DNA from: Deltaproteobacteria bacterium HGW-Deltaproteobacteria-1
GTDB lineage: Bacteria; Desulfobacterota; Syntrophia; Syntrophales; Smithellaceae
NCBI GenBank assembly: GCA_002840635.1
Contig: PHBN01000038.1
Coordinates: 1 to 51,028 of the forward strand
Direction of reading: 5' to 3'
Length of the DNA stretch: 51,028 bases
The notes under the pieces were generated by a model. That model did not search any database. It was not told the DNA's origin and saw only the letters and a program-made list of their open reading frames with translations. The translations under genes were made by a program, and so were the position numbers. Within the stretch, counting starts at the first letter, position 1. Each line of letters begins with the position of its first letter. This document shows positions 1-18,433 of this stretch, piece after piece.

Positions 1-222
1 GAAATGACAATTTACGCATCTGGAGGCGTCATTGACTTCGGGGGGGTGATAGCCTTTTTTGTTAAAGACGGAAGAGACCCGCAAAACCTGGCGGGGACAA
101 TTGGCAATGCAAAAACCGCAGCCCTTGCAGCGGTCTTCAATCACAATGACCTGTCCCTGCCTTTTTTTCCGGGATCCATTTTCATCTTGGGGATTGATTT
201 GGTATTTCTTTGTTTTCTGCAT
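1..222 (-). CDS. 4Fe-4S dicluster ferredoxin-domain protein, 5' part only (runs off the window); resembles delta subunits of 2-oxoacid:ferredoxin oxidoreductases
   Basis: Own translation from ATG at 222..220: MQKTKKYQINPQDENGSRKKRQGQVIVIEDRCKGCGFCIANCPRQVLRVSSVFNKKGYHPPEVNDASRCVNCHF... It has a CxxCxxCxxxCP motif plus the start of a second cluster motif. It is absent from the ORF track because no stop lies inside the window. Confidence 0.6.
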   Translation of the reverse strand, partial: MQKTKKYQINPQDENGSRKKRQGQVIVIEDRCKGCGFCIANCPRQVLRVSSVFNKKGYHPPEVNDASRCVNCHF

Positions 223-369
223 TGATTTAACACAATTCCCCTGCATAATTGAATTATACAAGGCGACCTGCCGGATGGATTAATTTGCTTGAATATCGGG
301 GATTTGTACAGGAGACGCTTCCCTAAAGTACCAAATTCCATCAAATGCGTGCAAAGTTGCTAAAAAGGC

Positions 370-502: not shown

Positions 503-2530
503 TTAGATTTTAACCCAGCGTGCCGCTACTAGGGATGTCAGATTTGAGATCGTCCCCAGGATCCGGCGCTGTTCGGGGAGGAGATTTTTAAATTCGTATT
601 GCATACCCACTACACCTAATATCTCTTCATCCTGGGATTTAATCGGCAGAAAGCAGTAGGGGATACTCGGCAGCGTTTCCGTTCCCGCGCCGGCAATTTC
701 CCCGTGAGCAAATGTCCACTTAGCCACGGCCAGGTCATTTTGGTTAATTTCCAAATCCGGGTTGCTCTTAGCCCACAACTGTAAATCGCCTTTCTTTTCT
801 TTAAAGAGAACAAAGCAGGGGACATTAATGACCTTCTGAATATACTTGATCGTAATATTGCTGATGTCATTGATAATGGTCGTTCGCAGGAAGGCCAGGG
901 TGTTCATGGTTTCCTGCGAAAACGCAGCCAGTCCTTCCACCAATTGTTCCAGTGGGGGAAGGGTTAAGAATTCCTTGCTCATCTCTTCAATTAGAACAAC
1001 TCTCTCCAGCCTTAATTGCAGCGCGATGTTCTGTTTTTTTACAATCTTTACCAACTGACCGATTATTATTGCGGTAAAAAGGAAAACCAGTACATTGATT
1101 ATTTCTTTGGGATCTTTCATGGTAAAATTGTATCTGGGTATGGTGAAGAGAAAATCATAAATTAACAGACTTACGATTGAAGTAAATATGGACGGCCACA
1201 TTCCAAATAACAAAGCACTAACACTTGTAGCGATCAAATAGATATAAACCAGCGAAGACGGATCAACGATGCGTTGGAGAATCAGGTTAATCATGGTGAT
1301 CATCACAATCATGCCAAGTGCTTTTAAATAAGGTGACACGTTAAATGCCGCTCGTCTGGGGGGAGGAAGGATATCTTCTTTTTTCTCCTCAATGGTTGGC
1401 GTAATGAGATGGAGCTCGAAATCACCTGCGGCGCGAAGAAGACGGGAAGTGGGGGATCTTTTGAAAAATTCAACAATCGCCGGGCGTAGCGGTTTACCGA
1501 TGACAATTCGGGTAATGTTATTTTCCGTGGCAAAACGAATAATTTCCTCGGCAACATCATCGCCGGAAAGCGTCATGATTTTTGCGCCCAGTTCTTCGGC
1601 AAGATTGAGGGCATCCGTTAAATAAATTTTTGCCCGGCCCGATGGTTCGGTCAGCCCGGTAGGTAGAACATAAACGGCATACCATTCGGCATGAACATTC
1701 TTGGCAATGGCATAAGCCTTGCGGATGAGCTGTTTGGCATAGGGACTGTCCGCGATACAAACAACCAGCTTTTCCGTAGCAGGCCAGGGGCCGGCAATCG
1801 CCTTTGCCCTCATATAATTAATGAGCTCGCTGTCCATTTTCCGGGCAACCAGAGTCAACATGAGTTCGCGTAGCGCAAACAGATTGCCCCGCTGAAAAAA
1901 ATTATCAATGGCGCGCTGGGCCTGCGCAGGAAAATAGACCTTCCCCTCCTTTAATCTCTGGAACAGTTCTTCCCAGGGAATATCAACAACCTGCACCTCG
2001 TCGGTGCGGTCAAAAAAAGTGTCCGGCAATGTTTCCTGCATGCGTACGCCGGTGATCTTGGCCACAGCGTCATTCATGCTCTCAAAGTGCTGGATATTGA
2101 CGGTAGTGTGCACATCAATTCCATGTTCCAGTAACTCTTCAATATCCTGATACCGCTTGGGGTGGCGGCTGCCCTCGATATTGGTATGGGCAAGTTCATC
2201 AACCAGAACAACCGCAGGATGCCTTGTCAGAATTGCATCCAGATCCATTTCACTGACCAGAAGGCCTTTATATTCAATAGACTTTCGGGGTATGACTTCC
2301 AGGCCGGCAAGCAGTGCGTCAGTATCGGCGCGCTTGTGTGTTTCGACAATACCCGCGACGACATCCACGCCGCGTTTTTTCAATACGTGGGCCTCATTGA
2401 GCATGGCATATGTTTTGCCGACTCCCGGCGCATAGCCCAGAAATATTTTCAACCTTCCCTTTTTGACATCATCCTTTTCGATTTCTTTCAAAAGGGCATC
2501 GGGATCGGGTCTTAAATCTTTTTCTTCCAT
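503..2530 (-). CDS. kdpD: KdpD-type sensor protein without the histidine-kinase half (KdpD N-terminal domain, Usp-like domain, 4 TM segments, GAF-like domain)
   Basis: 675 aa. The N-terminus GRLKIFLGYAPGVGKTYAML is the KdpD P-loop signature. A hydrophobic block (MIVMITMINLIL...FLFTAIIIGQLV) is followed by a GAF-like end ...LLPEQRRILGTISNLTSLVAA. No HisKA or HATPase motifs are present, and the ORF stops where E. coli KdpD continues into the kinase. Confidence 0.85.
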   Translation of the reverse strand: MEEKDLRPDPDALLKEIEKDDVKKGRLKIFLGYAPGVGKTYAMLNEAHVLKKRGVDVVAGIVETHKRADTDALLAGLEVIPRKSIEYKGLLVSEMDLDAILTRHPAVVLVDELAHTNIEGSRHPKRYQDIEELLEHGIDVHTTVNIQHFESMNDAVAKITGVRMQETLPDTFFDRTDEVQVVDIPWEELFQRLKEGKVYFPAQAQRAIDNFFQRGNLFALRELMLTLVARKMDSELINYMRAKAIAGPWPATEKLVVCIADSPYAKQLIRKAYAIAKNVHAEWYAVYVLPTGLTEPSGRAKIYLTDALNLAEELGAKIMTLSGDDVAEEIIRFATENNITRIVIGKPLRPAIVEFFKRSPTSRLLRAAGDFELHLITPTIEEKKEDILPPPRRAAFNVSPYLKALGMIVMITMINLILQRIVDPSSLVYIYLIATSVSALLFGMWPSIFTSIVSLLIYDFLFTIPRYNFTMKDPKEIINVLVFLFTAIIIGQLVKIVKKQNIALQLRLERVVLIEEMSKEFLTLPPLEQLVEGLAAFSQETMNTLAFLRTTIINDISNITIKYIQKVINVPCFVLFKEKKGDLQLWAKSNPDLEINQNDLAVAKWTFAHGEIAGAGTETLPSIPYCFLPIKSQDEEILGVVGMQYEFKNLLPEQRRILGTISNLTSLVAARWVKI

Positions 2531-2550
2531 GAGGTTACCTTTGTACTAGT

Positions 2551-3129
2551 TTACCGCTGAACCGCGATACTCTCAAGATCAATATTCAATTGTAAAACGT
2601 TGACCCGTTCCATTCCCCAAATCCCCAGAAGAGGGCCTTCCGTGTTTTGATGGATTATTTTTTCGATGACGGATTGGGGAATCTTTCTTTCCCGGGCGAT
2701 TCGTGATGCCTGGATTCGTGCGGCTTCTACACTGATATGCGGATCAAGACCGCTTGCGGACGACAGCACCAAATCGGCGGGAATGGGCATATTCGAGGGC
2801 AATCCATTTTCCCTGCGAACGAGTTCAATACGCCCTTGGACCTGCTTTAATAGTTTTGCGCTGGATGGCGCCAGATTACTTGCCGACGAATTACTCGCGT
2901 CATAGGGGGGATCAATGGCGGATGGCCGTCCATGAAAATATTCAGGGCGGTTGAATGATTGCCCCAGAAGCTTTGATCCAATGACGATGTCGTTTTGTTT
3001 AATGATACTGGCATTGGATTGCCGGGGAAATACGGTTTGTGATACTGCCGTTATGGCGAGTGGATAAATCAATCCGCAAATGATTGATAATCCCGCAAAA
3101 ACCAGGATGGACCGTTTCAGTTGCAACAT
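2551..3129 (-). CDS. kdpC: potassium-transporting ATPase subunit C
   Basis: 192 aa with a single N-terminal TM segment and conserved KdpC motifs ([13 protein letters not shown]). AGGAG lies 8 nt upstream of the ATG. It sits between kdpB and kdpD. Confidence 0.9.
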
Positions 3130-5158
3130 ACCGCATCTCCTTTATAATAAGTGTAACGTCGATATTAGAAGACGTCGATATTAGAAGATCAATTATTTTT
3201 ATGCCGGCAAAAGGCAGTATTAACCCTCCTATGCCGTAAATTCCGAGATTCCGGCGCAGCAGAGCTGACGCGTTAGATGGAATATAACGCACACCGCGCA
3301 GCGCCAGAGGAATCAGTATGGGTATGATGATGGCATTGAAAATTACTGCCGAAAGAACGGCGCTTTCGGGACTGGAAAGATGCATGATGTCGAGTATTCT
3401 GAGCTGAGGATAGCCAACAATAAAGATGGCCGGGATGATGGCAAAATATTTAGCCACATCATTGGCGACACTGAAAGTTGTCAGCGCGCCTCGGGTTATG
3501 AGAATCTGTTTGCCGATTTCCACCAGATCCAGAAGCTTGGTCGGGTTGGAATCCAGATCAACAATGTTGGCGGCTTCGCGGGCTGCCTGTGTTCCGGCAT
3601 TCATTGCCACGGCGACATCCGCCTGAGCCAGCGCCGGCGCGTCATTTGTGCCATCGCCGATCATGGCTACCAGATGTCCTTTCTCCTGATAGTTGCGAAT
3701 CAGCTCCAATTTTGTCGCCGGTTTGGCCTCGGCCACAAAATCATCGACACCCGCCTCCGCCGCAATGGTGGCCGCGGTCATCGGGTTATCGCCGGTAATC
3801 ATGATGGACTTAATCCCCATTTGCCTGAGTTTGGCAATCCGGCCGCTGATACCCTCTTTGAGAACATCTTTGAGGCGAACCGCGCCGAGAATTTGTTCAT
3901 CCTGCGCAATCAAAAGGGGCGTTGAACCTTCGGCGGCAATAGATGCCACAATATCCTGTGCTTTGGCTGGCAATGGATTGTTCTGCGCTGAAATAAAATC
4001 CCTCACCGCGTCAAACGACCCTTTTCTGATTCGATGACTGTTCCAGTCGATACCGCTCATCCGCGCCTCGGCGCTAAAGGGAAAAAAGACAGCACCTTCG
4101 GGAGCCCGGATATCACTGCCGCGCATGCCCAGTTTTTCTTTTGCCAGAACAACAATACTTCTTCCTTCCGGCGTATCATCAGCAAGAGAAGATAATAACG
4201 CGGCATTGATTAATTCCTTCTCTTTCCCCTCCGTGAGAGCAATAAACTCCGTTGCCATTCTATTGCCCAGCGTGATCGTGCCGGTTTTATCCATGAGCAC
4301 CACATCGACATCTCCCGATGCTTCCACAGCCCGGCCACTTGTCGCTATAAAATTGTACTGTAACAATCTATCCATGCCCGCTATTCCTATGGCCGGCAAT
4401 AATCCACCGATGGTTGTGGGCATTAAGCACACCAGAAGGGCAATGAGCATGGCCGCGTCAACAGGTACGCCCATGTAAGCGGCAAAATATTTTAAAGTGA
4501 CAACCACAACGATAAATACAACAGTCAGCGCTATTAAAAGCAGATTGAGCGCCCGTTCATTGGGCGTTTTTTGTCTTTTCGCGCCCTCAACCATGCCGAT
4601 CATCTGATCGAGAAAACTTTCCCCGGGATTGGCGGTAATGCGAACGGTTATTTTTCCAGAAAGCACGCGGGTGCCCCCGGTCACACCGCTGCGGTCTCCT
4701 CCGTATTCCCGAATGACGGGCGCGGATTCTCCGGTGATGGCCGATTCATCTATCAGTGCCGTCCCGACGGCCACTTCACCATCTCCGGGGATCGTGTCGC
4801 CGTCTTCAAGAAGGATCAGATCTTCTTTTTTCAACTGCAGGGCGGATATGGTTTCTATACTGCCGTCATTCAATAGCCGTTTTGCTTTGGCCTCGGAGCG
4901 GTTCTTTTTGTCGGCAAAATTGGCAAATATAAGCGTGAACCACAGCCACAAGGTAATCTGCAAATCAAAGGTCATCCCGTGGCCGGTAAAAATATCATAT
5001 ATAACAATAAACGTCGTTGCGATGGTCACTATCTCCACAATAAACATCACGGGACTTTTAATCATCATCAGCGGATTGAGCTTTGTAAGCGATTCCTTCA
5101 GCGCGGGGATGATAAACTTTGTCTGCCAGATCTTGATTTTTTTCGATTTCATTTTCAT
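2999..5158 (-). CDS. kdpB: potassium-transporting P-type ATPase subunit B; 3' end altered by a 16-bp duplication (ancestral stop at 3142..3144)
   Basis: P-type ATPase motifs are present: [36 protein letters not shown]. The ORF as given reads 130 nt into kdpC. See the findings for the duplication and for a probable missing AEGRGKAQA segment. Confidence 0.9.
3156..3187. repeat. perfect 16-bp tandem duplication (ACGTCGATATTAGAAG x2) inside the kdpB 3' end
   Basis: Read directly: 3156..3171 is identical to 3172..3187. Confidence 0.95.
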
Positions 5159-5163
5159 TTACC

Positions 5164-6831
5164 TCAAAACGTCTTGCCGATAGCTAAAAGCAGGTGTTCC
5201 AACAGTGGCCCCAATGTTAAGACCGGGAAAAATGTCAACGCTCCGACAACGATAACAACCGCAATCAGCATGAAGGTGAAAAGCAGACTGGCTGTCGGAA
5301 AAGTCGCCACACTTTCTGGAACAATTTTCTTCTCGGCAAGATTTCCTGCAATCGCCAGGGCTGGAAGAATCGTGGAAAACCGTCCGATCAGCATTGCCAA
5401 AGAAGTTGTCAGATTATAAAAAACCGTATTGGCATTGAGTCCGGCAAAGGCAGAACCGTTATTGCCGGAGGCCGAGGCAAAAGCATAAATAATTTCGGAT
5501 AATCCATGCGGCCCGGTATTGCCGAGGCTGGCGACACCCGCCTGTGTGGAGACAGCGATACTCGACAAGATCAGTTGCAAAATAGCGGGAGTTACGATAA
5601 TCACCACCGCCATGACCATTTCCAGAAGCTCCAGTTTTTTACCCATGAATTCCGGAGTCCGGCCGATCATCAATCCTGCCAGAAACAGCGTCAGAATGGC
5701 ATAACTCAGCATGCCGATGAGGCCGGTTCCGACTCCGCCGAAAATGACTTCGCCGATCGCCATATTAAACAACAGAACTATCCCGCTCAAAGGCAGCATG
5801 CTGTCGTGCATACTGTTGACGGCTCCACAGGACGTAACCGTCGTGGACTGGGCAAACAAAGCAGAATTCACGACGCCGAATCGGGTTTCCTTGCCTTCCA
5901 TATTCATTCCAGATGCGATCCCTGCTTTTTCCAGCAGCGGATTGCCCCGCATTTCCGTCCAGGCAAAAATCCCCAGTCCGGTCAGATAAAGGATCATCAT
6001 GGCTGCAAAGACAGCAAAGCCCTGCCGCCTGTTTTTCAACATCGCACCCAGTGTGAAGGGCAGGGCCGCGGCAATCAGCAGCAGTCCCAGCACTTCTAAA
6101 AAATCCGTGAGCGGCGTCGGGTTTTCGAAGGGATGAGCGGAGTTGGTATTAAAGAATCCACCGCCATTCGTGCCGATTTGCTTGATCGCTCTTCCCTCCA
6201 AAGTCCTGGCCTCAATGGAAGGACTCAAGGTTTGTACAGCGCCCTGCGAAACCAGAATGAACGATAAAATTACGACAAGCGGCAGCAGGACGTATAAAAT
6301 ACAGCGGGTCAAATCCACCCAGAAGTTACCGATGGCCGCCGCTGATTTACGGACAAAGCCGCGGATAACGGCAATGACCGCGACAATGCCGATCGCCGCG
6401 GAAATAAAGTTCTGTACGGTCATGCCCATCATCTGCGTCAGGTAACTCATCGTCCGCTCGCCGCTGTAGGTCTGCCAGTTTGTATTGGTGCCGAAAGAGA
6501 CAGCGGCATTGAGTGCCGTATCCCAGCGCACAGCGCCAAATTTCTGCGGATTAAAGGGAAGCCAGCCCTGAATCAGTTGCAAACAGAATAACGCCACAAT
6601 ACCGATGACATTCAAAAGAACCAGGCAGAGAGTATACGTTTTCCAGGACATTTCTTCATTGGGTTCCACGGTAAATATCCTGTAAAGGAATCTTTCGACA
6701 GGCGCTATAACCGGCGAAAGAAATGTTCTATCGCCGCTGAAAACCTTCGCCATGTATATACCCATGGGATAAGCCAGGATCGTTATAATAAAGGGAAACA
6801 GAATGAGGCACAGCCAGTTACCTGTTGTCAT
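5164..6831 (-). CDS. kdpA: potassium-transporting ATPase subunit A
   Basis: 555 aa polytopic membrane protein with KdpA selectivity-filter-like motifs (NTNWQ, TNGGGFF, SCGAVN, SGNNGSAFAG). It lies directly upstream of kdpB. Confidence 0.93.
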   Translation of the reverse strand: MTTGNWLCLILFPFIITILAYPMGIYMAKVFSGDRTFLSPVIAPVERFLYRIFTVEPNEEMSWKTYTLCLVLLNVIGIVALFCLQLIQGWLPFNPQKFGAVRWDTALNAAVSFGTNTNWQTYSGERTMSYLTQMMGMTVQNFISAAIGIVAVIAVIRGFVRKSAAAIGNFWVDLTRCILYVLLPLVVILSFILVSQGAVQTLSPSIEARTLEGRAIKQIGTNGGGFFNTNSAHPFENPTPLTDFLEVLGLLLIAAALPFTLGAMLKNRRQGFAVFAAMMILYLTGLGIFAWTEMRGNPLLEKAGIASGMNMEGKETRFGVVNSALFAQSTTVTSCGAVNSMHDSMLPLSGIVLLFNMAIGEVIFGGVGTGLIGMLSYAILTLFLAGLMIGRTPEFMGKKLELLEMVMAVVIIVTPAILQLILSSIAVSTQAGVASLGNTGPHGLSEIIYAFASASGNNGSAFAGLNANTVFYNLTTSLAMLIGRFSTILPALAIAGNLAEKKIVPESVATFPTASLLFTFMLIAVVIVVGALTFFPVLTLGPLLEHLLLAIGKTF

Positions 6832-7104
6832 TGTAATCTCCTTAATCGTCTTGAGCTATTTTCGCAATTCTCTAAAAAAATAATATAATATCGTTGATTT
6901 GAAAGATGAAGAGCCCCAATAAAATAAAAATATCCGGTATTGAGGCCTGCCTGCAAACAGGAGTTGTGTATTGTCAGGATAGTTAGGCGATATCAGGGCA
7001 TCTGATATGGTTAGATAAGACAGATATGTTTGCACACTGCTTTCTGGACACAGGAAATGTCGAAAAAGCTGCAAAAGAAGAACATTAGACATTTCTTCTT
7101 ATTT

Positions 7105-7215
7105 CCCCCTATATGCCGACGAGGTTAGCTGACGGGCTCGGACTGGGAAATGTCCTATTCTTCGTGTATCAGGCCAAATATTATTAGATCACACCCTCGG
7201 GAAAGAGATAGGCCT
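7105..7215 (-). promoter_or_regulatory. c-di-AMP (ydaO/kimA-class) riboswitch-like leader of the kdp operon; only the 3' conserved strand is recognised
   Basis: The minus strand at 7147..7115 reads CCCAGUCCGAGCCCGUCAGCUAACCUCGUCGGC. The core CCGUCAGCUAACCUCGU matches my recollection of the invariant 3' segment of the ydaO motif. An upstream GGGUGUGAUC resembles the GGGGUGAAUC element. The 5' half was not recognised. Confidence 0.45.
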
Positions 7216-7216
7216 G

Positions 7217-7876
7217 TTGATGGAAGACATTAAAATTAATGATATTGTTAAAATCCTGAAAAAAGAATTGAACCTGGGAGAAATGCCCATTGTGTCCCAC
7301 CTTGCGGAAAGCGAACGCGATCCTTTTGTCATTTTGATATCCACACTGCTCAGCCTGCGAACGAAAGACGAAGTCACAGCTATGGCGACTGAAAGGCTCC
7401 TTGCTCTGGCATCCACTCCCGAAGCAATGTTGAAGGTTCCCCAGGACAAAATCGCCAGGGCTATCTACCCCGTAGGATTTTACCGCAACAAGGCCAGGGG
7501 CATTCACCATGTCTGCCGCGAACTCATTGGCCGGTTTGACTCAAGGGTACCGGATGATCTGGATGAATTGCTGAGCATCAAGGGCATCGGCCGCAAAACA
7601 GCTAACCTGGTCATCACACTGGCTTATGGAAAAGATGGTATCTGCGTGGACACACATGTCCACCGCATCTCCAACCGCCTGGGTTATGTGGTCACCAAAA
7701 CACCGGATGAAACGGAAATGGTCCTGCGAGCCAAACTTCCCCGGAAATACTGGATTATTTACAACACCCTGCTGGTCTTCTTCGGCCGTAAAACCTGCAA
7801 GCCGGTCTCGCCTATTTGCAGTACCTGCCCAATTAGTCGATATTGCGACCGCGCGGGCGTCACCATAAGCCGATAA
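7217..7876 (+). CDS. nth: endonuclease III (DNA glycosylase/AP lyase)
   Basis: HhH-GPD motif (LLSIKGIGRKTANLV), catalytic region VDTHVHRISNRLG, and a C-terminal 4Fe-4S ligand pattern CKPVSPICSTCPISRYC. The ATG at 7220 is the likely start. Confidence 0.9.
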   Translation: MMEDIKINDIVKILKKELNLGEMPIVSHLAESERDPFVILISTLLSLRTKDEVTAMATERLLALASTPEAMLKVPQDKIARAIYPVGFYRNKARGIHHVCRELIGRFDSRVPDDLDELLSIKGIGRKTANLVITLAYGKDGICVDTHVHRISNRLGYVVTKTPDETEMVLRAKLPRKYWIIYNTLLVFFGRKTCKPVSPICSTCPISRYCDRAGVTISR

Positions 7877-8121
7877 TCCTCAAACCATGAAGGGAAAGAA
7901 AATAGTTGACGATTATTCATCATTTGGCTATGATGCCGCGGTTTTTTGGATGACATGCAGGAAAGCGGCCGTCTCGATTAATGAAGATGTATTGAGCATC
8001 ATTCATAAATTCACGGCTGGCAAGGCGGTAAAAGAAGCGTTGAATAAAATGACCGCCGGTGATATGTATCCCTAAGATCATAATGAATTGTTGAAATGAC
8101 ATAATTTAAAGGATGTAAAAG

Positions 8122-8505
8122 ATGACGGTATTTTTAACCATATTGCACATTGTTGTCTGTATTACCTTGATTTTAATCGTCTTGCTTCAGGCAGGCAAAG
8201 GCGCGAACATGGGCGCTGCTTTCGGAGGTTCAAGCCAGACCGTTTTCGGTTCAGGCGGCGCGGGCACTTTTCTGGGAAAGATGACAGCGGCGGTAGCGAT
8301 CATTTTCATGCTCACCTCCATTACATTGACCTACACGGCGTCAAGAAGACCGTCAGGTTTGATGGATAGCGCATCAGCTCCTGCGGCAAGACAGGCGGCT
8401 CCTGTTGCGCCCAAACCCGCAACATCGCCCGCAGCAACATCAGCAAAGGTACCCGCAGCACCGGCAACTGCTCCCGGTGCGGCACCTGCACCTGCGGCTA
8501 AATAA
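8122..8505 (+). CDS. secG: preprotein translocase subunit SecG with an Ala/Pro-rich C-terminal tail
   Basis: Two TM segments flank the Gly-rich loop LLQAGKGANMGAAFGGSSQTVFGSGGAGTFL. It is followed by tRNA-Leu(GAG), as in the E. coli secG-leuU arrangement. Confidence 0.85.
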   Translation: MTVFLTILHIVVCITLILIVLLQAGKGANMGAAFGGSSQTVFGSGGAGTFLGKMTAAVAIIFMLTSITLTYTASRRPSGLMDSASAPAARQAAPVAPKPATSPAATSAKVPAAPATAPGAAPAPAAK

Positions 8506-10050: not shown

Positions 10051-10268
10051 ATTATTGCCCGGGGTGTCGTAATGTCGAGAAGAGAGCTTCAGTCATGTTG
10101 ACTAAACCAGTTGCATTGTATGTTTAAGAACCCGTAAATATACCTTCGGCATTCGGCGCGTTCGGGGAACGCGCCCTACAATATTTCGCAGGGACTGTTC
10201 ACCGAACAGTCCGAATAATTTCAACTCATCATGCGTTTCATCTGTAAAATATATTTCAGGAGGGCGTC

Positions 10269-15517: not shown

Positions 15518-16293
15518 TGTCGGTTCTCTGCATGCAGAATATTTCCTTTTGCTATACGGACAAACCCGTGCTGGAAGATATATCGTTGGGCCTGGACAGG
15601 GCCGAAATCGTCGCGGTGATCGGGCCCAACGGATCGGGAAAAACCACGCTGCTTAAATTAATCAACGCCACGCTGTTTCCACTTTCCGGCCGGATGCTCA
15701 TCGAAGGCAAAGACACGAAGCAATGGACGCGCCGCGAGATTGCCCGGACCGTGGCCATTGTTCCGCAGGAATCACCCGCAGTCTTTCCGTTTTTTGCAGA
15801 AGAAATTGTCATGATGGGGCGTTTCCCTTATCGGGGCTCGCTGGCGTTTGAAACCAGGACGGATTACCGCATCGCCCGTGAAGCCATGGCCCGGACAGAC
15901 TGCCTGTCCTTTGCGCAGCGCCGCTTCAATGAACTTTCAGCGGGTGAGCGGCAGCGTGTGCTGATTGCCCGCGCGTTGGCGCAGGAGCCGAAGATTCTGC
16001 TTCTGGATGAAAGCACGGTTTTTCTGGATTTAAAACATCAGGCGCAGTTTCTGTCCCTGCTGAAGCAATTGAACCAGGAACGCCATCTGACAGTGATTTT
16101 TGTCACACACGATGTCAATCTGGCGGCGCAAAACGCCGACCGGCTTCTTTTGCTTTACAAAGGGAAAAAATATGCTATAGGAACTCCCGCGGATGTTTTA
16201 ACCGCGCGAAATATGAAAGAGGTTTATGATGTCGATGTCGGGATTGACCTCAATCCGCATGACGGCTCGACCCGCGTGACATTGTTAACCTGA
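15517..16293 (+). CDS. ABC transporter ATP-binding protein (iron-siderophore/cobalamin class)
   Basis: Walker A GPNGSGKTTL, signature LSAGERQRV, Walker B LLLDESTVFLD, H-loop VTHD. Confidence 0.85.
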   Translation: MSVLCMQNISFCYTDKPVLEDISLGLDRAEIVAVIGPNGSGKTTLLKLINATLFPLSGRMLIEGKDTKQWTRREIARTVAIVPQESPAVFPFFAEEIVMMGRFPYRGSLAFETRTDYRIAREAMARTDCLSFAQRRFNELSAGERQRVLIARALAQEPKILLLDESTVFLDLKHQAQFLSLLKQLNQERHLTVIFVTHDVNLAAQNADRLLLLYKGKKYAIGTPADVLTARNMKEVYDVDVGIDLNPHDGSTRVTLLT

Positions 16294-16295
16294 TC

Positions 16296-16383
16296 AGGCT
16301 GTTCAATAAAAGGAAGCCGGTTTAAATCCGGCGCTGCCCCGCAACTGTAAGCGGAAAGCGCAGAAGGGCAACTCCCGGGAAGA
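16296..16383 (+). promoter_or_regulatory. cobalamin riboswitch, 5'/core portion only
   Basis: AAAAGGAAGCCGGTTTAAATCCGGCGCTGCCCCGCAACTGTAAGCGG fits the conserved core AGGGAA..GGTG.AA..CC...GC.G.CCCGC.ACTGTAA. No B12 box or expression platform is recognisable before coding sequence begins. Confidence 0.6.
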
Positions 16384-16384
16384 T

Positions 16385-18433
16385 TTGACACCTACGGAAG
16401 AAGCACAGAAAGGTGATCCTTCCGACAAGGCTATCCGTATGGAAGAGGTGGTGGTCAGTGCCACGAAGCTTCCTTCGACACGAAAAGACATTCCCAATTC
16501 CGTTATTATCAAGGACAGTAAAGATATTCAGGCGTCGGGATCGAAAACGGTCGGAGAGTTACTGGCGAGTGAACCGGGGATCGATTGGCAGACCTACGGC
16601 AATTACGGTGGAGCGACACAGGAGATCCATATTCGCGGCATGCGGGGCAATGCGACCCAGGTGCTGATCAACGGCGTCAACTTCGGTGCACCGTCACTGG
16701 GTGTTGCGGATGTGGGAAAGATTCCCGTCGACAACATCGGGCGGATCGAAACCGTCAAAGGTTCCGGTTCGCTTCTCTATGGATCGGGAGCTATGGCTGG
16801 AACCGTCAATATCATTACGAAGGAACCGTCAAGGGATAAAATGGATCTGAAGGTCAGCGCCGGTTACGGTACACAAAACACATATCGAATGGCTGCGGAA
16901 AACGGGATGTTCGTCATCGGTGATTTCGGATACTACCTGACTGCCGGCAGAACAGAGACAGACGGGTTCAGGGACAACAGCTGGCTTCGGCAGAATGACG
17001 TGTCCCTGAAGTTGTTGTTTGACAAGAAGGAAAAAATCCATATCAGTCTTTACGGTGATTATATAGACAGGTCATACGGTGTGCCGGGCGTCAAACCGCC
17101 TGCCGGCACACAGGATTATTATGTCGGCGGTGAGAGATTTTACAACAGCGAGTCGGCAACTCTGCTGGATCACAGCAGTGATAAAGACGGGCATCTGGTC
17201 TTGAACGTTAAGGGCAAACCGATCAAATGGTTCGGTTATGACCTGAAAGCTTATTACACAAACCTGGAAAATTACAACTATGCCCGATACGCATTCGACG
17301 GTACGGGGGCGGAAAACTGGGTGAAGAACAGGGTACTGGGAACAGATGGTCATTTGGACGTTTATCCCTTTGAGGGAACCCTGTTGCTGCTGGGTTTCGA
17401 GTACAAGGATTTCAACTGGAAGAATCAAAGTTATGGTCTGGTGGCATCGGGCCTCCGTGACGGGTCCGATTCGACGATAGAGGCTCACGTATTTACACAG
17501 GGTTATTTTATGGAAGCTGAATACAGGCCTTTTAAATACGGGAAAGCTTTTGCCGGTTTCCGTCATGAAATTAACTCCGCATTCGGTTCGGAAAATCTGC
17601 CCCGCGTAGGCATTGTCATCAATCCGTTTGAATCAACAGCGTTGAAGATCAGCCACGGGAAACACTTCCTGGCGCCTACGCTGAACGATCTTTATTGGCC
17701 GGCCGATCCTTACAACAGGGGAAACCCCGATCTTAAGCCCGAGAACGGCTGGCATACGGATGTTACTGTCGAGCAGTCATTGTTCAACGACAAATTATTC
17801 ATGACCATGTCGTATTTTCACTGGAATGTGGATGATAAAATCCAGTGGGAGCCGGATTCGCAGGGGGTATGGAGCCCTATCAACCTGGCCGGCTACAGGG
17901 CGGATGGTATTGAGGCAGGCCTTAAGGTAGGGCCCTTCTATGGAGTATCTCTGGGGTTAAGTTATACGTACACGAAGGCGGAAGAGGAAAACCGTGACTA
18001 TTTGAAGCAGGATTACGGATACCCGCCTGATTTCCCGCCGGATTTTCAGTACCTCATGGTCAAACGGCGCGCCACCATGACACCGGAGAATCAGTTCAAA
18101 GGCGATCTGACATACAAGAGTAATTTCGGGCTGACCGCGACGGCTACGTTGCGGTATGTGGGTGACCAGATTGTTTATAATACAGAGTCCACCACCTATC
18201 CTGATACTCAAACCGTAAACTATACCATCGGGTCATACTGGACAACGGATTTAAAGATCGAACAGCGTCTGTTCAAGCATTGGGTTTTGTCGCTGGCCGG
18301 ATATAACCTGTTTGACAGTCCATACGATACCCGTCTGCAGTCTTTTACCGATCAGACCACTTTCAATACTACGATGTGCGGCTATCCGGGAAGGGGAAGG
18401 TCTGTTTTCGGAAGCGTGTCTTATGAGTTTTAA
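16385..18433 (+). CDS. TonB-dependent outer-membrane receptor (BtuB-like), apparently lacking start codon context and signal peptide
   Basis: TonB-box-like EEVVVSATK, plug domain (IRGMRGNATQVLINGV) and a terminal aromatic residue (...SVSYEF). The open frame begins at a TTG directly abutting the riboswitch fragment, with no hydrophobic leader. Confidence 0.8.
   Translation: MTPTEEAQKGDPSDKAIRMEEVVVSATKLPSTRKDIPNSVIIKDSKDIQASGSKTVGELLASEPGIDWQTYGNYGGATQEIHIRGMRGNATQVLINGVNFGAPSLGVADVGKIPVDNIGRIETVKGSGSLLYGSGAMAGTVNIITKEPSRDKMDLKVSAGYGTQNTYRMAAENGMFVIGDFGYYLTAGRTETDGFRDNSWLRQNDVSLKLLFDKKEKIHISLYGDYIDRSYGVPGVKPPAGTQDYYVGGERFYNSESATLLDHSSDKDGHLVLNVKGKPIKWFGYDLKAYYTNLENYNYARYAFDGTGAENWVKNRVLGTDGHLDVYPFEGTLLLLGFEYKDFNWKNQSYGLVASGLRDGSDSTIEAHVFTQGYFMEAEYRPFKYGKAFAGFRHEINSAFGSENLPRVGIVINPFESTALKISHGKHFLAPTLNDLYWPADPYNRGNPDLKPENGWHTDVTVEQSLFNDKLFMTMSYFHWNVDDKIQWEPDSQGVWSPINLAGYRADGIEAGLKVGPFYGVSLGLSYTYTKAEEENRDYLKQDYGYPPDFPPDFQYLMVKRRATMTPENQFKGDLTYKSNFGLTATATLRYVGDQIVYNTESTTYPDTQTVNYTIGSYWTTDLKIEQRLFKHWVLSLAGYNLFDSPYDTRLQSFTDQTTFNTTMCGYPGRGRSVFGSVSYEF

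Follow-up and report, generated by a model that had tools for sequence, protein, structure and literature searches.

Control of the K+ pump KdpFABC by cyclic di-AMP (c-di-AMP) at the RNA level is described for 12 species, all Bacillales, in which a kdp riboswitch occurs together with a 365-amino-acid KdpD that consists of the N-terminal domains only and with no KdpE; riboswitch and KdpDE were proposed to be mutually exclusive (Wang et al. 2019, PMC6488665). At the protein level, the N-terminal domain of KdpD is an atypical serine kinase that phosphorylates the TGES serine of KdpB, so that the pump is inhibited, and DHp/CA-truncated versions of KdpD exist, mostly where KdpE is absent (Silberberg et al. 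2024, PMC11018627). Staphylococcus aureus pairs KdpE with a KdpD that is a complete histidine kinase, and c-di-AMP binds the Usp domain of the latter at a site that requires the motif (A/G/C)-X-S-X-S-X2-N-(Y/F), with S244A and N249A abolishing binding (PMC4686210, PMC8214093). Here we compare with these systems a kdpABC-kdpD operon and its leader on a 51,028-nucleotide (nt) stretch of DNA, the window (contig PHBN01000038.1 of assembly GCA_002840635.1, Deltaproteobacteria bacterium HGW-Deltaproteobacteria-1). The genome is a metagenome-assembled genome (MAG) of 3.3 Mb in 558 contigs, 83% complete, and KdpA similarity places the host with Syntrophaceae/Smithella-type deltaproteobacteria.

The original prediction, read from the letters of the window, held that K+ uptake here may be tied to c-di-AMP through both the leader RNA and the Usp domain of KdpD, in place of a KdpDE phosphorelay. 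Its observations hold in part; as to its interpretation, the RNA level finds support for the organism and so does the absence of a phosphorelay, but c-di-AMP control through the Usp domain is not supported. Taken as a whole, the explanation that we consider likely combines a riboswitch acting as an OFF switch, a KdpD acting as a serine kinase and an artefactual deletion in the window.

A predicted c-di-AMP riboswitch before kdp

The intact form of the leader is seen on conspecific contigs. Divergent from kdp lies nth (endonuclease III by Pfam; 7220-7876, plus strand), a synteny shared with locus L033. Contigs encoding an identical Nth, which among the matches listed include ENA ERZ27239240, -41 and -43 and Logan SRR3546454, match the window with 100% identity in the flanks but are 140 nt longer at this site. 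This intact form is present as well in two JGI contigs and another ENA contig, one of the JGI contigs being from a strain 93-95% identical (L094). At least 8 contigs from 3 assembly sources combine it with flanks 100% identical, and all conspecific contigs checked across the site carry the 140 nt missing from the window. RF00379 scores 85 bits over model positions 1-134 in three of these contigs (L088, L089 and L090) and 73.9 bits in a fourth, L091, whose 3' end is cut and whose flanks are 100% identical like theirs. At the conspecific locus, the RF00379 match is thus full-length, exceeds the gathering score, precedes a K+ transporter gene and is followed by a terminator, which supports a canonical c-di-AMP riboswitch before kdp in this organism.

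The missing 140 nt contain a promoter-like site, TTGACA-17-TAGCAC, and the 5' half of the aptamer (the P1 5' strand, P2, ACGGGGGAUCC and GGGGCGUAUUUCU). In five relatives a full aptamer, scoring 75.5-85.3 bits, precedes kdpA and itself follows a conserved TTGACA-17-TAGCWN site, and L033, where nth and kdp stand as in the window, has ~200 nt more between the genes. The RF00379 scores at L053 and L019 are 93.9 and 73.1 bits.

The copy in the window is a remnant of this element. In a permissive scan, positions 7099-7224 of the minus strand match RF00379 with a score of 31.7 bits (E = 2.5e-5 in 1 kb, 1.9e-5 per genome), which falls short of the 38 bits that Rfam sets as gathering score; an Rfam scan at the gathering threshold finds no riboswitch before kdpA, and other than RF00379 the permissive scan of the leader returns chance matches only. 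The alignment is sound only from ~7166 on, with broken pairs in 4 helices in its 5' half. The RF00379 match that the original prediction looked for is below the threshold and homologous only over the 3' half of the aptamer (~7166-7112). This surviving half (7112-7166, minus) includes the conserved strand that had been noticed upstream of kdpA, CCGUCAGCUAACCUCGU at 7135-7119, and keeps UAGGAC...GUCCGAGCCCGUCAGCUAACCUCG...GGC at 7157-7115; its core, ~7142-7119, is invariant in the window and 5 relatives, and the window equals the conspecific contigs throughout the 3' half. Deleted are the P1 5' strand, the P2 hairpin, ACGGGGGA-CC, GGGGCG and the 5' strand of the next helix, and the junction is marked by TGATA (7167-7171, minus), a direct repeat that bounds the missing 140 nt. 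Beyond it, positions 7172-7219 are intergenic DNA beside nth that cmscan forced onto the 5' half of the model; they are identical in the conspecific contigs and lie there upstream of the real promoter. For this reason we rejected the idea that the 52 nt between nth and CACGAAG represent a decayed 5' half of the aptamer. A promoter scan leaves no promoter-like site upstream of the truncated leader. Control by c-di-AMP at the RNA level is supported for the organism, with its intact 85-bit aptamer of about 145 nt and terminator, but not for the window copy, which has lost the promoter and the 5' half.

It is hardly credible that the half aptamer of the window is itself a functional sensor, be it a minimal or variant form for c-di-AMP or one for another ligand, with the repeat CAGGCC...GGCCUG as a new closing stem. 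The cmscan alignment (E = 2.5e-5) is full-length, and the 6-base-pair inverted repeat (7215-7210 / 7177-7172) could close a stem. The upstream 48 nt, however, are identical in the conspecific contigs, where the riboswitch does not include them and its promoter comes only after them; ACGGGGGA-CC, GGGGCG and the 5' strands of 4 helices are missing; both halves are required by each of the two ligand pockets of this pseudo-dimeric RNA, as known from structures (PMC5575661); and upstream there is no remaining promoter-like site.

Predicted switching and range of the system

After the aptamer comes a terminator hairpin (7075-7100, minus; AAGAAGAAAU/AU-UUCUUCUU, -5.7 kcal/mol) and then a U-rich tract. 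Hairpin and U-run recur in 7 of 7 relatives, and L053 and L019 have strong classical terminators after the aptamer. The original prediction had the position of this hairpin and the ~240-nt length of the following leader right, but the hairpin is not AT-only, since it contains two G-C pairs. A strand within the aptamer, GAAGAAUAGGACAUUUC (7163-7147), is complementary to GAAAUGUCUAAUGUUCUUC (7095-7077), which covers the terminator loop and 3' arm, and the two form a predicted antiterminator (7077-7163, minus) of 17 base pairs, which the ligand-free leader shows in its minimum-free-energy fold. The duplex has an energy of -19.5 kcal/mol versus -5.4 +/- 2.1 in shuffles, of which 0 of 1000 reach it.

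On the basis of these predicted folds we infer a ligand response with OFF logic. The operon kdpABC-kdpD would be transcribed from the conserved promoter-like site through a ydaO-type RF00379 OFF switch. When no ligand is present, GAAGAAUAGGACAUUUC would pair with the terminator loop and 3' arm, giving the antiterminator and allowing transcription to read into kdpA; when c-di-AMP is bound, at high K+, the same strand would be held in the aptamer, so that the weak AU-rich terminator could form and kdp would be off. This is the logic shown experimentally for the kdp riboswitch of Bacillus thuringiensis (PMC6488665). Several points weigh against the scheme in this exact form: the terminator stem is weak at -5.7 kcal/mol; some of the U-tract after it can instead pair within a conserved hairpin further downstream, and the exact expression platform may differ; and the -10 box TAGCAC is non-consensus, the conserved TTGACA-17-TAGCAC site not being called by the promoter scan. 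Folding also led us to reject constitutive termination in the truncated copy: the deletion leaves the whole antiterminator in place, and any transcript would be expected to read through.

From the terminator to kdpA extends a long leader (6832-7074, minus) that is conserved in L033, L005 and L094. The hairpin at ~7068-7035 (CUUUUUCGACAUU...GUGUCCAGAAAG) follows the terminator directly, shows compensatory changes in relatives and shares the terminator U-tract. Inspected by eye, the 240-nt leader offers nothing convincing as a kdpF open reading frame or as sigma-54 boxes. Antisense to it, a TTCGCA-17-TATAAT site (10/12; 6861-6889, plus) is directed toward the riboswitch and nth, and is found in L033 and the conspecific contigs as well.

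A search for cyclases, which the original prediction had suggested, reveals two DAC-domain diadenylate cyclases in the genome, one CdaA-type and one DacZ-type. Both are of unusual build, contigs C346 and C269 encoding a CdaA_N-DAC-YbbR fusion (~484 amino acids) and a DacZ_P-DAC protein (~290 amino acids). The genome also holds a second, intact c-di-AMP riboswitch (C376:3625-3760, locus L001; 90.4 bits) directly 5' of kup (PF02705).

RF00379 is widespread in the family, being present in 35 of 61 sampled species genomes; among 29 family riboswitch loci examined, ~12 are before kup and ~10 before kdpA, nearly equal shares. A model built from the relatives and run over 80 kdpA loci matches 5 Syntrophia loci, L053 (Thermodesulfovibrionales) and L019 (Omnitrophota), and none of the loci with an 880-900-amino-acid KdpD. 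Of these riboswitch loci, L005, L006, L019 and L053 have a readable kdpD, whose product in each case has 638-696 amino acids and no kinase end; the gene is in fragments in L033, and the L007 and L027 sequences do not cover it. At L053 (3073-4843), an open reading frame of 280 amino acids with no Pfam match lies between the 93.9-bit riboswitch and kdpA. The original prediction had called such wiring unusual outside Firmicutes. This agrees with Wang et al. (PMC6488665), from whose summary we take the phylum range of predicted kdp riboswitches and who report them only in Bacillales, but not with the frequency in the present family, where about 10 of 29 loci are before kdpA.

With kdpFABC of B. 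thuringiensis and the B. cereus group (PMC6488665) the locus shares an RF00379 aptamer and an intrinsic terminator in the kdp leader, a KdpD free of histidine kinase domains encoded after kdpC, and the making of c-di-AMP; KdpE is lacking there, and none was found here. The host differs, being a Gram-negative syntrophic deltaproteobacterium (Desulfobacterota) rather than a member of the Bacillales, and so does KdpD, which has 675 amino acids with transmembrane and GAF regions here versus 365 amino acids with N-terminal domains only in Bacillus; in addition, kdpF is not seen, a 240-nt leader follows the terminator, and the window copy is truncated at its 5' end. Judged by sequence, kdp riboswitch plus kinase-less KdpD is the same kind of system as in Bacillus; the phylum is new for it, and the form in which KdpD is truncated differs. 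The kimA and ktrAB (ydaO) riboswitches of B. subtilis belong to the same RNA family and likewise turn K+ uptake off at high c-di-AMP, and the genome studied here also has such an element before kup; they differ from the kdp case in their transporter genes and their phylum.

A KdpD without histidine kinase domains

The kdpD gene (503-2530, minus) encodes 675 amino acids with the Pfam domains KdpD (23-231; 319 bits), Usp (253-368), DUF4118 (401-501) and GAF_3 (555-667), and a Pfam scan finds neither HisKA nor HATPase_c in it. The protein thus ends after its GAF-like domain, as the original prediction had it, and the prediction was also right that the next 280 nt hold no kinase or response-regulator remnants: tblastn with 6 KdpD kinase halves and 2 KdpE-like regulators gives only noise there (E >= 0.01, <22 bits). 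The same protein is found unchanged on 5 other contigs. In L005, KdpD is 675 amino acids long and 88% identical, and DNA homology between L005 and the window stops at the kdpD stop codon; in L006 it has 696 amino acids. A kinase-less architecture of ~640-690 amino acids occurs in many of the 80 kdpA loci, Methanothrix included. L005, L006 and the conspecific contigs, where a full-length kdpD-kdpE would have spoken for a mere deletion, all have the short KdpD with the same architecture and stop position. Because its length is identical in the conspecific contigs and conserved in relatives, the truncation does not appear to be a recent deletion.

Canonical KdpDE control, with DHp/CA domains on KdpD and an adjacent kdpE, is not what the locus encodes. 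No kdpE-like gene is found within 10 kb of the kdp operon on the conspecific contigs, and no KdpD-type kinase half in the 83%-complete genome; together with the domain content of KdpD, this supports the proposed lack of a KdpDE phosphorelay. A different arrangement is a split sensor, seen in L013, L014, L015, L017 and L018 (deltaproteobacterial and Endomicrobiales loci, none with a riboswitch): a DUF4118-GAF-HisKA-HATPase kinase of ~500 amino acids is encoded upstream of kdpA in all of them, a kinase-less KdpD of ~650-690 amino acids is present in most, and an OmpR-type regulator stands beside the split kinase in L014 and L018.

It is very unlikely that such a two-component system, made up as in L013-L018 of KdpE and a split-off KdpD kinase half, still runs kdp from elsewhere in the genome and leaves the riboswitch as a secondary layer. 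Related deltaproteobacterial loci do pair a kinase-less 678-amino-acid KdpD with a separate regulator and a ~500-amino-acid kinase, the MAG is 83% complete, and elsewhere in it there are two OmpR-family regulators 33-37% identical to KdpE-like proteins. When the relatives' kinase halves are compared with the host's own genome, however, they match only generic HisKA/HATPase regions at ~30% identity; the only other strong DUF4118 protein in the genome, on C251, has no kinase domain, and a third match, on C169, is sub-threshold; in the loci compared, the split system never occurs together with the riboswitch, and kdp has no neighbouring kinase or regulator where the riboswitch is present; and riboswitch and KdpDE are mutually exclusive according to Wang et al. 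(PMC6488665). The C251 protein (7486-8403, ~300 amino acids) contains DUF4118 (transmembrane) and GAF_3 only, a paralogue of the C-terminal half of KdpD with the same ending and likewise no kinase domain; it is encoded downstream of a 733-amino-acid, membrane-anchored PtsI/enzyme-I-like protein (C251:5126-8403 for the pair).

KdpD resembles instead the truncated type with a serine kinase. Its N-terminal domain carries a Walker A motif, GYAPGVGKT (G-X5-GKT), and a Walker B motif, VVLVDEL (D-E), and KdpB retains the TGES serine (ITGESAPV, Ser159 in the intact conspecific KdpB). The Walker motifs, the Usp, transmembrane and GAF regions with DHp/CA absent, and the KdpB serine are all shared with the forms described by Silberberg et al. 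(PMC11018627). With its DHp/CA domains absent and no KdpE found to partner it, KdpD would not control transcription; since the Walker A/B serine-kinase domain and the KdpB TGES serine are kept, post-translational inhibition of the pump is its most likely role, as has been shown for the KdpD of E. coli and Deinococcus, and we infer that it probably acts as a serine kinase inhibiting KdpB. The truncated type is known mainly from Campylobacterota and Archaea, where it was suggested that kdp expression may be constitutive, whereas here it is coupled to a c-di-AMP riboswitch; and the only riboswitch control noted there concerns Bacillota whose KdpD is of the short KdpD/Usp form, whereas the present KdpD keeps its transmembrane and GAF regions (PMC11018627).

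The Usp domain itself lends no support to c-di-AMP as the input. Although this is, as in S. aureus, a Usp-domain KdpD in a c-di-AMP-producing organism (PMC4686210, PMC8214093), the domain reads C-I-A-D-S-P-Y-A-K, with Ala at both the Ser244- and the Asn249-equivalent positions, and the S. aureus-type motif is not present; 20 residues after the Ser, the beta-2 strand WYAVY is of the E. coli type (WXAVY). In view of these two Ala residues and of the E. coli-type strand, c-di-AMP sensing at the protein level, which had been part of the original prediction, is not supported. KdpD probably takes K+ as its input, through the transmembrane/GAF part, and not c-di-AMP through Usp. A point on the other side is that Deinococcus KdpD responds to c-di-AMP, and absence of the S. 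aureus motif is thus compatible with binding, or with another binding mode.

Put together, these features suggest a proposal that we advance tentatively, at somewhat less than even confidence: in Syntrophia, and seemingly also in certain Thermodesulfovibrionales and Omnitrophota, Kdp would be under two separate K+-status signals, transcription being controlled by the riboswitch only, and KdpD being only a serine kinase with E. coli-type transmembrane/GAF sensing of K+ and a Usp domain that does not bind c-di-AMP. If true, this two-signal control would be an undescribed combination that joins the logic of Bacillus to that of E. coli, and the riboswitch would have taken the place of the DHp/CA-KdpE arm more than once, in several phyla. 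Riboswitch control of kdp, as predicted here, reaches past the Bacillales, to which the only systematic survey had confined it, to Gram-negative anaerobes, namely many Syntrophaceae/Smithellaceae species and to single loci of Thermodesulfovibrionales and Omnitrophota. It is tied there to a different kinase-less form of KdpD, consistent with the rule that riboswitch and KdpDE exclude each other, and it offers a plausible answer to how organisms with a DHp/CA-truncated KdpD regulate kdp transcription.

Contig lesions, operon layout and neighbouring genes

The 140-nt deletion is one of many lesions in the window. Over ~40 kb aligned with ENA contig k141_7606 there are 2 substitutions and 12 indel lesions, namely 11 deletions (17-252 nt) and one 16-nt tandem duplication; the first 12 kb compared with JGI Ga0246094_001036 show the same lesions. 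Four are in the kdp region: the tandem duplication at 3156-3187, which shifts the frame at the 3' end of kdpB; a loss of 42 nt at 4910/4911, removing the conserved EALAEGQGRAQADSL from kdpB; a loss of 39 nt at 6190/6191, removing the conserved SKQVIAVGPVASQV from kdpA; and the loss of 140 nt at 7167 that took the kdp promoter together with the aptamer's 5' half. The others are deletions at 10086 (65 nt), 15472 (133 nt, in FecCD), 16357 (247 nt, the 3' part of a cobalamin riboswitch and the start of a TonB receptor), 24876 (252 nt), 25515 (17 nt), 27858 (70 nt), 33271 (43 nt) and 35405 (169 nt), the last two each in a cphA paralogue. Apart from the TGATA junction, microhomology at the lesions is 0-3 nt. 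The 12:2 ratio of indels to substitutions is unlike natural divergence, and unrelated genes are frameshifted; for these reasons an assembly or scaffolding artefact is the most likely source of the lesions, the 140-nt deletion included.

The other reading, which we think unlikely, is that the lesions are real and the window represents a natural variant whose kdp has neither promoter nor c-di-AMP sensing, the operon being silent and decaying or else expressed without regulation, in which case the intact antiterminator would form constitutively on any read-through transcript. Features that fit a real variant, and so weigh against an artefact, are the 5-nt direct repeat TGATA at the 140-nt junction, typical of slippage deletions, and the in-frame deletions in kdpA and kdpB (39 and 42 nt, multiples of 3); moreover, 4 of the 12 lesions are within the kdp operon, and k-mer assemblers seldom make junctions on 0-5 nt of identity. 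Against this stand the mere 2 substitutions beside 12 indels in ~40 kb, the spread of lesions across the whole window with frameshifts in unrelated genes such as FecCD and cphA, and the intact form in all other contigs checked and in the 93-95% identical strain L094. Nor was the deletion junction found by exact match in JGI metagenome contigs, which is weak evidence, as the window's own record may be left out of them. With an artefact as the preferred origin, a caution follows for this kind of material: the dozen or so mid-sized deletions of a MAG contig mimic regulatory and coding novelties, and oddities should be compared with other assemblies before they are interpreted.

The operon itself is genuine, all 4 genes of kdpA-B-C-D having strong Pfam matches. 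Upstream of kdpD on the minus strand are kdpA (5164-6831), with 555 amino acids here versus 568 in the conspecific contigs, kdpB (2999-5158), whose open reading frame has 719 amino acids here versus 680 and keeps the TGES serine, and kdpC (2551-3129; 192 amino acids, Pfam KdpC 228.7 bits).

The cobalamin riboswitch hit by the 247-nt deletion lies at 16279-16439 (plus) and scores 35.4 bits against a threshold of 31.5, its 3' part being lost.

Beyond kdpD, the next gene is, as had been recognized, a ferredoxin gene outside kdp. The original prediction gave it its own promoter; TTGACA (396-391) and TATAAT (375-370) boxes do lie upstream, but their spacer is 15 nt and the promoter scan did not call the site. 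Only the 5' part of the gene is in the window (1-228, minus). It encodes a 4Fe-4S dicluster protein, of 94 amino acids in the conspecific contigs, and there it opens a 2-oxoacid:ferredoxin oxidoreductase cluster.

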